A DNA stretch of 64,000 nucleotides from Shigella phage SGF2. The position numbers and the translations under genes are program-made. Positions 1,881-55,718 of the stretch are shown piece after piece; the first letter of the stretch is position 1; every line of letters begins with the position of its first letter. The stretch lies in sequence record MN148435. One strand, written 5' to 3'. The notes under the pieces are model-generated. The model saw only the letters and a program-made list of their open reading frames with translations. It did not search any database and was not told the origin of the DNA.

Positions 1881-4073
1881 ATGTCTAGAGAATTAATGCC
1901 CAAATCTGGCATAATGATGCCCCACGTAGTTGTAACCAGAGATGCGGCTGTTGTTGGTGTTTCTACTGTAGATGGACAGGCCGGGGCTATTGACCTCACT
2001 GGAAAGTATTTACAGAAAACCGATGCAGCTGCTACATATCAGACTAAAGTGGAAGGTGCGTCTAAAGATTTTGTACTGGATTCAATTCAACCTATTATGT
2101 CTGGTGCCCTATTCAGGGAAGACCCTTGGGTTGTGAATGATACACCTTTCCGTTCTACTGGAGCTAATGGTGTAGAGTCAGTAGATATGATGAAAGTTAC
2201 TACTGATAACTCAATTAAGATTGGCAGTTATGCTTCTTCTGTTCAGGGGGTAGAGATTCACTCTGCTGGTCGTCTTCAAGTAGTAGACCAGAATGACTCT
2301 GGAGTAGAAACTAAGTATCCAGTTTATTCTAAACGGTATCGTCCAGAGATTGAGGATTTGCCTTTTGCTGCAATTGGTTCTTATGTCAAAGATTCCAAAG
2401 GCCGCACTATTGGGGTTAATCGTACAGGTATTAACTCTGATATCAAACAACTTACTCAGAAGGTAACGTTTACTCAGCCAGTAACTGTTGCTGATGCTGT
2501 TGGTGATTATGATGCAGTCACTTTGAGGCAGCTTCGAAACAGTGGTGGTGGTTCTGGTGGTCCTACAATGAGTGGCATTTCTAACTTTGGGATTGGGGAT
2601 TTTCACCTACGGGATAGTCGAGCTTTCATTCCAGCTTTTGAAGTGACATCTGATGGTCAGCTTCTTAATCGTGCTGACTACCCAGACCTTTGGGCATACG
2701 CTCAACTACTATCCCCAATTGAAGACTCTCTTTGGTTGTCTAATATCTATCAGAGAGGTAGATACTCTACAGGTGATGGCACCACCACTTTCCGTGTCCC
2801 TGACCGAAATGGTATTCAGCCTAACTCTCTTTCAGCTCTTTATGGACGAGGTGATGGGGGTGCTTCCGCAGCTAACGGTCAAGTGTTTGACTCTGCGGCC
2901 CCAGACATTATAGGCTCTGTTGCAGCATACTCTGCTGGAACTTATGCCCAGGTTTTTGGGTTAGCTACTAATGCCTTTGAGTCTAACAATGCCCTCTTTC
3001 CTGAGGGTTCAGGTGATACAATACCTCCGGGGTCTGGGCCAGTTACTGGTCGAAACAACACCCTTGAGTTCAAAGCTTCCAGATATAATGGAATTTATGG
3101 TCGTAGTAATACAGAGATTATGGGTCGTAACTTTGTTGGTGTTTGGACTATTCGTGCTAATGGTGGGTTTGTCGCTGCTAATACTTCTTGGAGTGTCATT
3201 AACAGTGATAGCGCAGCTCCGGCTTTAAATACTTCTGTGGTTGGTGGTAAGGTAGAATCTAAATATACTAACCCAACCTCTTCCCAATATGCTCGTATGT
3301 ATATTTCCTCTTCTTGGGGAAGTGTTTGCTCTGCCGTGATCGAAGCACAGGGTGCAAGTACTCACGCTTATAAGTTTTATGAGGATGGCACTGTTGATTT
3401 TAGGCAGTCTGGTAAGACAAACCCATTCCGCATGTACACACCAACTGGAACTTGGACTGGACTGACGGATGCGGGGTCAAACAATTTAACCACCAATGGA
3501 ATGGATAGGGTGGCGATTTCTAGTGGCTCTGACACAGTGGTGCGTGGGTACTCTATTGGAGGATCTAAACCTAATGGTTATCCAACCAAGGTTGGGTATC
3601 ATATGTATTTGCCGGGAAGTAACGCCTTTGGTATCGCCTGTACAACTATTGGAGGAGACAACGGAAAGTTCTGTCGATATTTTTACGACATAGACGGGCA
3701 GATGTATGGCTCAACTGATTATGGAAACTTTAGCTATACAAAGAGTGGTGTCTCGGATGAAAACCTGAAACATAACATTGTTGATATTGATGCAGAAAGA
3801 GCTATTGAAGTAATAAAAGGACTGAAGTTCAAATCCTTTGTTTACAACGATGATGAGAGGAATCGATCTCGTCGTGGTATCATTGCACAGCAGGCAGAGA
3901 CGGTAGAACCTCTGTATGTCAAGACTCGCAAATACCCAGGAATGGAGAAAGGCTCTCCAGAAATTGAGCAGAAAGAGCTAGATACTACTCCAATGCTCCT
4001 TGACACTATGCAAGTAGTTCAAGATCTTCTGAAGCGTATTGAGATTCTAGAATCAAAACTAGCAGAGAAGTAA
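1881..4073 (+). CDS. tail fibre protein with collar-like domain and C-terminal intramolecular chaperone (peptidase S74-like)
   Basis: RBS AAGGAG before ATG; collar-like motif DGQLLNRADYPDLWAYAQ...GDGTTTFRVPDRNG; C-terminus NIVDIDAERAIEVIKGLKFKSFVYNDDERNRSRRGIIAQQ typical of self-cleaving fibre chaperone domains. Confidence 0.8.
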   Translation: MSRELMPKSGIMMPHVVVTRDAAVVGVSTVDGQAGAIDLTGKYLQKTDAAATYQTKVEGASKDFVLDSIQPIMSGALFREDPWVVNDTPFRSTGANGVESVDMMKVTTDNSIKIGSYASSVQGVEIHSAGRLQVVDQNDSGVETKYPVYSKRYRPEIEDLPFAAIGSYVKDSKGRTIGVNRTGINSDIKQLTQKVTFTQPVTVADAVGDYDAVTLRQLRNSGGGSGGPTMSGISNFGIGDFHLRDSRAFIPAFEVTSDGQLLNRADYPDLWAYAQLLSPIEDSLWLSNIYQRGRYSTGDGTTTFRVPDRNGIQPNSLSALYGRGDGGASAANGQVFDSAAPDIIGSVAAYSAGTYAQVFGLATNAFESNNALFPEGSGDTIPPGSGPVTGRNNTLEFKASRYNGIYGRSNTEIMGRNFVGVWTIRANGGFVAANTSWSVINSDSAAPALNTSVVGGKVESKYTNPTSSQYARMYISSSWGSVCSAVIEAQGASTHAYKFYEDGTVDFRQSGKTNPFRMYTPTGTWTGLTDAGSNNLTTNGMDRVAISSGSDTVVRGYSIGGSKPNGYPTKVGYHMYLPGSNAFGIACTTIGGDNGKFCRYFYDIDGQMYGSTDYGNFSYTKSGVSDENLKHNIVDIDAERAIEVIKGLKFKSFVYNDDERNRSRRGIIAQQAETVEPLYVKTRKYPGMEKGSPEIEQKELDTTPMLLDTMQVVQDLLKRIEILESKLAEK

Positions 4074-53904: not shown

Positions 53905-54204
53905 TCACCACTCTTTACCGGTTGTAATCGTAGAGCCACCACACCACAACGCTGTATCAATCACAACATTGTCTGGCGTAGACTTCTCTTCGTTGATAGA
54001 AGGGTTAGCATTAGAGCAGGTTGCTCCGTTCCAGCGCATATCAATCTCACCAGAAGGAACCTTCTCACCTTTATGCCAGCGAGATACACAAATACCATCC
54101 ACTGCTACTGCACACCATCCATCAGGACGGCTCTGTACGCAGCCTGTAAGGGCCACACAGACAAGGAAGATACAGATTAAGGATATTACACCACCCCAAC
54201 TCAT
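53905..54204 (-). CDS. Cys-rich lipoprotein (superinfection-exclusion candidate)
   Basis: signal peptide MSWGGVISLICIFLVCVALTGC with lipobox LTGC; 8 further Cys. Confidence 0.5.
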   Translation of the reverse strand: MSWGGVISLICIFLVCVALTGCVQSRPDGWCAVAVDGICVSRWHKGEKVPSGEIDMRWNGATCSNANPSINEEKSTPDNVVIDTALWCGGSTITTGKEW

Positions 54205-54223: not shown

Positions 54224-54299
54224 TGGTGCACCCTACAGGACTCGAACCTGTAACCAACGACTTAGAAGGTCGCTGCTCTGTCCATTGAGCTAAGGGTGC
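54224..54299 (-). tRNA. tRNA-Arg (anticodon UCU), CCA encoded
   Basis: minus-strand GCACCCTTAGCTCAATGGACAGAGCAGCGACCTTCTAAGTCGTTGGTTACAGGTTCGAGTCCTGTAGGGTGCACCA folds as cloverleaf: 7-bp acceptor, D-arm GCTC/GAGC, anticodon loop CTTCTAA, T-loop TTCGAGT. Confidence 0.85.
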
Positions 54300-54308
54300 T
54301 AGATTTGT

Positions 54309-54518
54309 TTAACTAAAGATACGAATGGCTACATCGTGACCGATATGACCGGGAACTTTATGCTGTTCTATTTTCAAACAGTGTTTACAGATACGAGATA
54401 CACGAGATTCTTTTCTCTCGACCGGAGTGTCTTTAGCGTGGGTGATATGTAGGTTCTCAGTGATCACCCACTCGTGTTTACATCCAGAATCTTCGGGCTT
54501 TTTCTTACGAAAGAACAT
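54309..54518 (-). CDS. small zinc-finger protein, paralogue 1 of 3
   Basis: start MFFRKKKPEDSGCKHEW...RICKHCL. Confidence 0.4.
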   Translation of the reverse strand: MFFRKKKPEDSGCKHEWVITENLHITHAKDTPVERKESRVSRICKHCLKIEQHKVPGHIGHDVAIRIFS

Positions 54519-54526
54519 AACACCCC

Positions 54527-54691
54527 TTAGATCAGATCTGTTTTCTTGTGCAGACCACACACTTTACAGCGAGAGTAGATACGCAACCCTTGTCGCTCTC
54601 TGTCAGTAAGTTTATTTGTGATCGTCAGTTCATAAGTATGAAGATCTTCCCACTCATGGAAATGAAAGAAGCGTTTGAACCATTTGATCAT
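54527..54691 (-). CDS. small zinc-finger protein, paralogue 2 of 3 (54 aa)
   Basis: ORF below cut-off MIKWFKRFFHFHEW...RCKVCG. Confidence 0.4.
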   Translation of the reverse strand: MIKWFKRFFHFHEWEDLHTYELTITNKLTDRERQGLRIYSRCKVCGLHKKTDLI

Positions 54692-54700
54692 AATGATTCC

Positions 54701-54862
54701 TTAGATTACATCACGATGACTAACATCACCACACACCTTACACTGAATAACGTAACGTGTGCCCTTGTCATTATTCCCATCTGAATCTGTATAGACCAGA
54801 GGGCGAGTATTAATAATCTTCCAATCATGACAATGAAAGACACGCTTTAGCCACTTGAACAT
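54701..54862 (-). CDS. small zinc-finger protein, paralogue 3 of 3
   Basis: start MFKWLKRVFHCHDW...QCKVCGD (internal Met of track ORF). Confidence 0.4.
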   Translation of the reverse strand: MFKWLKRVFHCHDWKIINTRPLVYTDSDGNNDKGTRYVIQCKVCGDVSHRDVI

Positions 54863-54869
54863 ATTAACC

Positions 54870-55121
54870 TCAAGCACAAGCAGGGAGAGTGATGATTTTA
54901 TACTGACCTTCAAACTCTCCAAACAAACCCAAGAATGTAGGACTGTAAGTACCAGTACAAACAAACTCATCAAACAATTCGTTATAGCTAGGCTTGATCT
55001 TCCAAGCCCATACATAACCCATTTTGTCAATTGCAATGTAACGAGAGTTCAGAGGAACAGTCATCATCACATCATCAACTTCAATCACTTTAGTGATTGG
55101 TGCAGCTTGGAAGTTTTTCAT
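54870..55121 (-). CDS. hypothetical protein
   Basis: 83-aa ORF. Confidence 0.3.
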   Translation of the reverse strand: MKNFQAAPITKVIEVDDVMMTVPLNSRYIAIDKMGYVWAWKIKPSYNELFDEFVCTGTYSPTFLGLFGEFEGQYKIITLPACA

Positions 55122-55303
55122 ACTTTACCTTTGATGAAAATATCATTACCACAGACACAGCATGAACGAACAACAGTAGCGCCACGCTGAACGATACGAA
55201 CCTCTTCTTTAACCAGATTAACACGAGCACCACAGCAAGGAGAGTTAACATAAGAGTAACCAGCTTGTGTATTCTTGATTGTTTGCTTAGACATTTGATT
55301 CAA
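55118..55303 (-). CDS. small zinc-ribbon protein
   Basis: CCGAR...CCVCG. Confidence 0.3.
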   Translation of the reverse strand: MNQMSKQTIKNTQAGYSYVNSPCCGARVNLVKEEVRIVQRGATVVRSCCVCGNDIFIKGKV

Positions 55304-55694: not shown

Positions 55695-55718
55695 AAAGGC
55701 CACCCGAAGGCAGCCTTT
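55695..55718 (-). terminator. hairpin terminator (possibly bidirectional)
   Basis: AAAGGC..CCCGAAGG..GCCTTT hairpin flanked by T-rich tracts on both strands. Confidence 0.35.

Follow-up and report, generated by a model that had tools for sequence, protein, structure and literature searches.

Three short genes on the minus strand of Shigella phage SGF2 (record MN148435), designated A, B and C, lie side by side at positions 54,309–54,862 of the window, i.e. of the whole 64,000-nucleotide stretch analyzed. They are read here as a variable array of small accessory early genes, the products of which would be zinc-ribbon binders for host takeover or counter-defence. The probability of this reading is estimated at about 0.45. 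Judging by their sequences, the three proteins are related, small and probably metal-binding.

By sequence, the window is a Kuravirus, a phiEco32-like E. coli podophage of the subfamily Gordonclarkvirinae. The region has 94–99.8% nucleotide identity to Kuravirus genomes, the closest being MN05, 1-6af, EK5 and EcoN5. Synteny places the array in an early, leftward-transcribed cluster and suggests early expression. The homologue in SU10 (SU10_0105) is located within the early genes CDS 69–125 (PMC4281155), and the early genes of YF01 and phiEco32 occupy the rightmost part of the genome (PMC9965538). Most genes of the early cluster have no known function and are likely involved in host takeover (PMC8948821).

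Three genes under purifying selection

Gene A (54701..54862, minus strand) encodes 53 amino acids with the N-terminus MFKWLKRVFHCHDW and, further on, the motif QCKVCG (full protein MFKWLKRVFHCHDWKIINTRPLVYTDSDGNNDKGTRYVIQCKVCGDVSHRDVI). Gene B (54527..54691, minus strand) encodes 54 amino acids with the N-terminus MIKWFKRFFHFHEW and, further on, the motif RCKVCG (full protein MIKWFKRFFHFHEWEDLHTYELTITNKLTDRERQGLRIYSRCKVCGLHKKTDLI). Gene C (54309..54518, minus strand) encodes 69 amino acids, begins with MFFRKKKPEDSGCKHEW and carries the motif ICKHCL (full protein MFFRKKKPEDSGCKHEWVITENLHITHAKDTPVERKESRVSRICKHCLKIEQHKVPGHIGHDVAIRIFS). A and B are separated by a spacer of 9 nt (54692..54700), B and C by a spacer of 8 nt (54519..54526), each holding a Shine-Dalgarno (SD) sequence. 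On the minus strand, the stop codon of A, the spacer and the start codon of B read TAAGGAATCATTATG (5'→3') and the corresponding junction from B to C reads TAAGGGGTGTTATG. The three adjacent minus-strand ORFs had been described in an earlier note on this DNA, and an ORF and sequence check found them as described. B, with 54 amino acids, is indeed below the 60-aa cut-off of the ORF track, and A and C are internal-ATG forms of longer ORFs (A within 111 aa from a TTG at 55036, C within 83 aa from a GTG at 54560).

The ATG start codons are considered to be the right ones because each is preceded by an SD sequence at a distance of 4–6 nt (GAGG at 5 nt for A, AAGGA for B, AGGGG for C), because the EcoN5 record has the identical three starts, and because family members elsewhere likewise start at the same Met. 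In EcoN5 the genes are annotated as the hypothetical proteins gp110 (A), gp109 (B) and gp108 (C), followed by the tRNA-Arg. Longer upstream starts were rejected, as were the antisense ORFs of the plus strand (54427–54609 and 54548–54784), since homologues and the substitution pattern favor the short minus-strand genes.

pN/pS values of 0.10 (A), 0.29 (B) and 0.10 (C) were obtained by comparing the orthologues of nine related phages, among which synonymous differences reach 0.27 per synonymous site. All three genes are under purifying selection and are thus real genes. The ORFs are also carried as hypothetical-protein CDS in EcoN5, EK010, O18-011 and other GenBank records.

That the ORFs are spurious or translated in part only, their likeness being that of repeated non-coding DNA, is very improbable and is effectively refuted. 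Such an explanation would suit very short ORFs, two of which are embedded in longer mechanical ORFs, and it would suit the proteomic record: the homologue is not mentioned in the SU10 proteomics paper and no mass-spectrometric detection was found. However, purifying selection is observed in the proposed frames, the SD sequence is at the right distance for all members in all phages compared, and about 1400 family clusters of the same length are present in unrelated phages. Furthermore, the metal ligands are invariant, the AlphaFold (AF2) model of A is confident, and Rfam shows no RNA family over the locus beyond the tRNA and a sub-threshold antisense match on the tRNA itself.

Predicted zinc-ribbon fold and the wider family

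Four metal ligands are predicted for each protein: His10, His12, Cys41 and Cys44 in A, His10, His12, Cys42 and Cys45 in B, and Cys13, His15, Cys44 and Cys47 in C. In 158 non-redundant sequences of the A/B family, Cys41 and Cys44 are strictly conserved (100% each), closely followed by His12 and Gly45 (both 99%), His10 (96%, with Cys in 3%) and Trp14 (92%). Gly34, Arg36, Tyr37, Lys48 and Asp51 are moderately conserved. In the C family (8 sequences) Cys13, His15, Cys44 and Cys47 are invariant. The motif which the earlier note had assigned to all three proteins is exact in A and B. C, on the other hand, has just (C)xHEW and CKxC, with Ile in place of Arg or Gln before the Cys and Leu in place of Gly after it.

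The AF2 model of A (pLDDT 84.9) contains a helix (residues 3–8) and the strands 14–25, 31–41 and 47–52. The model of C is of moderate confidence (pLDDT 71.6) and contains the strands 17–27, 35–44 and 50–56 and an extra C-terminal helix (residues 61–68). Both models have the same three-strand core, in which the first ligand pair immediately precedes strand 1 and the CxxC occupies the turn that links strands 2 and 3. The models indicate that the fold is a three-stranded antiparallel zinc ribbon, which would hold one Zn2+. This assignment is based on the ligand pairs (H/C)xH and CxxC, which are about 29 residues apart, together with the three-stranded sheet predicted by AlphaFold. With the ligands split in this manner, the term zinc-knuckle-like used in the earlier note does not describe the proteins. 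Residues 18–33 of the A/B family correspond to the tip of a long hairpin and have column entropies of 3.2–4.0 bits; the spacer from H.W to C..C ranges from 21 to 32 residues.

A Foldseek search with the model of A gave the zinc ribbon of NrdR as the best PDB match, which is not significant (E = 0.23). The N-terminal zinc ribbon of NrdR (PDB entries 9gex, 9fzf and 7p37) resembles the predicted fold of A, B and C in that two knuckles, approximately 25–29 residues apart, are mounted on a three-stranded antiparallel sheet, and the second knuckles are similar in local sequence (QC.VC). In NrdR, however, a CxxC...CxxC ribbon is combined with an ATP-cone, whereas A, B and C have HxH or CxH as the first knuckle, comprise 53–69 amino acids and lack a further domain. 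Profile searches of the PDB with both families yielded chance-level matches only, and no sequence match to NrdR or to other PDB chains was found. The retroviral-type zf-CCHC knuckle (CX2CX4HX4C) shares with A, B and C only a CxxC and His ligands. Its four ligands are confined to about 14 residues, whereas the pairs in A, B and C are about 29 residues apart and flank a β-hairpin. The Pfam zf-CCHC model has no match to A, B or C at E ≤ 10.

Ogr of P2, Delta of P4 and Com of Mu are small zinc-binding regulators of phages (60–75 amino acids) with a single zinc site and exclusively Cys ligands; Ogr and Delta are activators of late genes. Like A, B and C they are phage-encoded and small, and they have a single zinc site and act by binding a host or phage macromolecule, as is predicted for A, B and C. 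They differ in the all-Cys ligands, and Ogr and Delta act on late genes, whereas the array of A, B and C belongs to the early cluster. The Pfam models of Ogr/Delta and Com are absent among the matches of A, B and C at E ≤ 10 and among those of 40 relatives at E ≤ 0.1.

The wider family is large. In a search of 50%-identity clusters derived from 1.84 billion proteins, the A/B-type profile retrieved 1419 cluster representatives at E ≤ 1e-3 and 89 at E ≤ 1e-10. Nearly all A/B-type members are stand-alone proteins of 48–65 amino acids, and 37 of 40 sampled relatives belong to phrog_8294. The C family, for which eight clusters were retrieved, is small. Pfam showed no significant family for A, B, C and the 40 relatives, and the six proteins scanned against NCBIfam and PADLOC had no significant match. 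No publication on these proteins turned up in literature searches that covered phiEco32 gp107, phrog_8294, zinc in Kuravirus and LUZ24 gp12.

Members of the family occur in the early region of Pseudomonas Bruynoghevirus phages (TL gp08), in Pseudomonas phage ventosus and in the Synechococcus phages B3 and B23. One bacterial contig has a prophage-like region with an integrase downstream of the member; a second contig with the same protein has genes for RecT, YqaJ and SSB upstream. A further member adjoins a NusG-like gene in a P22-like contig, and many come from contigs of uncultured phages, where they stand among series of small unannotated ORFs. No annotated neighbor recurs across eight genomic contexts, and guilt by association was therefore discarded as a guide to function.

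Two relatives deviate from the single-domain form. A protein of 182 amino acids from uncultured phage-like contigs (P0096, L021 2917–3465) contains three tandem A/B-family domains in one chain. It is the domain-level counterpart of the three-gene array and hints that multiple copies may act together. In LUZ24, the N-terminus of gp12 (L020 601–1260) is a degenerate A/B-family member without the CxxC knuckle, and its reading frame continues into the following ORF, for which phage TL has a gene of its own (gp09). The cause is a gene fusion, the decay of the gene or a frameshift in the sequencing. For its degeneracy, the lost knuckle and the fusion to the following ORF, LUZ24 gp12 was rejected as an informative homologue.

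Relatedness of the genes and variability of the array

Among Gordonclarkvirinae, one, two or three members fill the slot that is bounded by the conserved upstream gene and the tRNA, so that the array is not fixed. A single member is present in phiEco32 (phi32_107) and SU10. Two members are present in O18-011 and NJ01 (A and C, with B absent), in SU7 (B and C) and in XT73 (an SU10-type member and C), and three in the window, EcoN5, ECBP2, NC-B and EK010. The alleles at position 1 are very different and comprise the window type, a 48-aa type, the phiEco32 type and the SU10 type.

A/B-type genes were found at 138 places in 106 records of the phage collection, so about 32 records have two of them. 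C is present at ≥ 90% identity in 46 records and at least 80% of the three-gene block is covered in 28; these record counts (106, 46 and 28) include GenBank/RefSeq duplicates. A scan of IMG/VR with the three-copy alignment gave two Kuravirus loci only.

All members end with ...GAT.T.ATC TAA GG..TT ATG. In phages without B, the end of A is joined straight to the B-to-C spacer at this microhomology, which suggests that gain and loss of members proceed by exact cassettes at conserved gene junctions. The protein P0005, from a Kuravirus-like contig of 77.9 kb, is a chimera which consists of a B-type N-terminus (MIKWFKRFFHFHEWE) and an SU10-type remainder. This points to recombination between paralogues or alleles.

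A and B are 39% identical over the full length (BLASTP E = 8e-13) and are unmistakable paralogues. For C, the BLASTP E-values are 1e-3 with B and 8e-3 with A. When a family HMM of 183 A/B-type sequences was run against the 1005 stop-to-stop ORFs of the window, C ranked third (E = 2.6e-4) after A (8e-25) and B (3.6e-19), and the next best ORF reached 0.086. In hhalign, the A/B profile and the C family are in register across 39 columns (E = 1.7e-4). None of 200 column-shuffled controls reached the observed score of 24.8 (mean 10.0, standard deviation 2.4, maximum 16.8). Cys at the first ligand position, as in C, occurs in about 3% of A/B-type proteins. The pattern H.W(10–50)C..C is found in the window in A, B and C and in one chance match at 3885–3944.

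In the PHROG database, A and B are assigned to phrog_8294 (A with E = 8.1e-25, residues 1–53 on profile positions 1–56; B with E = 1.5e-17, residues 1–54). C is assigned to phrog_13426 (E = 3.9e-36, residues 2–69 on positions 3–74 of 78) and has no match to the phrog_8294 profile at E ≤ 1. Both entries are labelled 'unknown function' with no fold or name attached. From these comparisons, C is a remote relative of A and B; the link between phrog_8294 and phrog_13426 is drawn only in this report, and weakly.

The A/B pair looks like a local duplication. Direct DNA repeats with a spacing of 171–174 nt connect the two genes: 58 nt at the 5' ends (72% identity), 15 nt encoding CKVCG, and 14 nt (54699–54712 and 54525–54538) that span the gene ends and the junctions. 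The nearest relatives of C outside Gordonclarkvirinae are found, with 44–54% identity, in Certrevirus/Vequintavirinae-type myophages such as CR3, CR8, CR9, POP15 and KaOmega, and C was therefore probably acquired separately, by recombination. Of the tandem triplication proposed in the earlier note, a probable local duplication of A and B is thus left, with their regularly spaced repeats and repeated junctions. Triplication is too strong a term for all three genes, because C is a deeply diverged member in a separate PHROG with its kin in Vequintavirinae-type phages.

It could also be supposed that all three genes were acquired independently and horizontally from the widespread family, each entering the same permissive slot upstream of the tRNA, and that no duplication array exists. 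For the locus as a whole this is unlikely. It is accepted for C, whose separate PHROG and myophage kin are as expected for a separate arrival, and it would accommodate the very different alleles at position 1 and the occurrence of the KW.KR.FH.H subtype outside Kuravirus (P0031 and P0104); trees of such short proteins are, moreover, poorly resolved. It is not accepted for the A/B pair. Here, the DNA repeats at constant spacing include the non-coding junction, the gene-end sequence is the same, and the nearest non-self matches are mostly other Kuravirus alleles, although a few non-Kuravirus members score alike. Local duplication of A and B with separate acquisition of C is therefore the preferred history.

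The downstream boundary of the array is conserved in Gordonclarkvirinae and is formed by the tRNA-Arg (anticodon TCT; 54224..54299, minus strand). This is the sole tRNA in the window (found by ARAGORN, 71.9 bits with the Rfam tRNA model). It starts 9 nt past the stop codon of C on the same strand and is therefore presumably excised from the early polycistronic transcript that also carries C. A functional link of the array to the tRNA was rejected. The two are neighbors only in Gordonclarkvirinae, and there is no tRNA near the members in phages of Pseudomonas, Synechococcus and Cronobacter. The stretch from C to the tRNA is interrupted by an inserted HNH endonuclease gene in O18-011 and by an extra ORF of 309 nt in XT73.

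Directly 3' of the tRNA-Arg, a protein of 99 amino acids is encoded (53908–54204, minus strand). It matches PF24052 (Phage_lipoprotein, E = 3.4e-34), has the lipobox LTGC and is a homologue of phi32_106, the 'putative phage lipoprotein'. It may act in superinfection exclusion or receptor blocking. Two genes upstream of the array (55121–55294, minus strand), a Cys-rich protein of 58 amino acids with the motifs SPCCGARV and, 20 residues further, SCCVCGND belongs to phrog_18461 (unknown function). It shows no significant kinship to the A/B family (HMM E = 0.83), and the early region therefore holds at least four putative mini zinc proteins. The early cluster also contains a terminator-like hairpin (55695–55718, minus strand), some 830 nt upstream of the array. 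It has a 10-bp stem and a UUCG tetraloop and is followed by a T-rich run.

Proposed role and its meaning for Kuraviruses

In the proposed mechanism, each gene would encode a single-domain mini zinc ribbon. One Zn2+ would be gripped at one end of the sheet by two knuckles, the (H/C)xH preceding strand 1 and the CxxC in the turn from strand 2 to strand 3. The long hairpin of strands 1 and 2 at the other end, hypervariable in sequence and length, would be the recognition surface; it could also simply be an unconstrained loop. The proteins would act stoichiometrically: soon after infection they would bind macromolecules of the host (or the phage) and so serve host takeover or counter-defence. Divergent paralogues would widen the target range, with each paralogue directed against a different or differently allelic target. 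Following the local duplication that would have given rise to A and B and the probable arrival of the distant member C via recombination, precise cassettes would come and go as the repeated gene ends and junctions recombine with one another. We infer that an accessory binder of this kind fits the features best, based on the small size, the rigid metal-clamped scaffold, the hypervariable hairpin, the early position, the presence or absence of members as cassettes and the lack of a conserved genomic partner.

The main rival is that the proteins are small nucleic-acid-binding regulators, i.e. zinc-ribbon DNA or RNA binders that tune transcription or translation of the phage or the host, much as small zinc-finger regulators of phages do, and not protein-binding inhibitors. 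This is possible, but considered less probable. A, B and C are net basic (+3 to +5, counted from the sequences), a charge that is compatible with binding to nucleic acids and to proteins alike, and Arg36, Lys48 and Lys42 are frequent in the family. The member beside the NusG-like gene and the weak resemblance to NrdR, whose zinc ribbon binds DNA, point in the same direction. The structural matches, however, are not significant, the Pfam models TFIIB and Rrn7 of zinc-ribbon transcription factors reach only E-values of about 0.03–0.05 in one of 40 members each, and neither a consistent genomic partner nor a target site is present. Furthermore, A and B are without a second DNA-binding or oligomerization domain, and a hypervariable hairpin combined with a copy number in flux would be unusual for a core regulator. 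Thus, the reading as accessory binders for host takeover or counter-defence is preferred.

The locus itself is no discovery, because the genes were already annotated as hypothetical proteins and already included in PHROGs. What appears to be unreported, as far as the literature was searched, is the interpretation of the family as zinc ribbons with (H/C)xH and CxxC pairs, as well as its size (about 1400 clusters at 50% identity), although neither Pfam nor NCBIfam has a model for it and no solved structure matches it significantly. The hypervariable hairpin and the cassette array of one to three copies in Gordonclarkvirinae also appear to be unreported. The weak link between phrog_8294 and phrog_13426 appears to be new as well, and all of these points are modest.

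More speculatively, and with rather low likelihood, these mini zinc ribbons, which form a very large family that has no name (at least about 1400 clusters at 50% identity), may be a natural library of binders. In such a library, a rigid zinc-clamped sheet would present the hypervariable hairpin, and members would be diversified, duplicated and shuffled as cassettes to neutralize variable targets of host defence or takeover. If this is true, the array of one to three members in Gordonclarkvirinae would be an arms-race locus.

Kuraviruses are being developed as therapeutic phages against pathogenic E. coli, and the BASEL phage collection includes them. An accessory array that is easy to delete is therefore handy for experiments on host range or counter-defence. 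Should its members turn out to inhibit host factors, the family would extend the known host-takeover proteins of phages by a compact scaffold.
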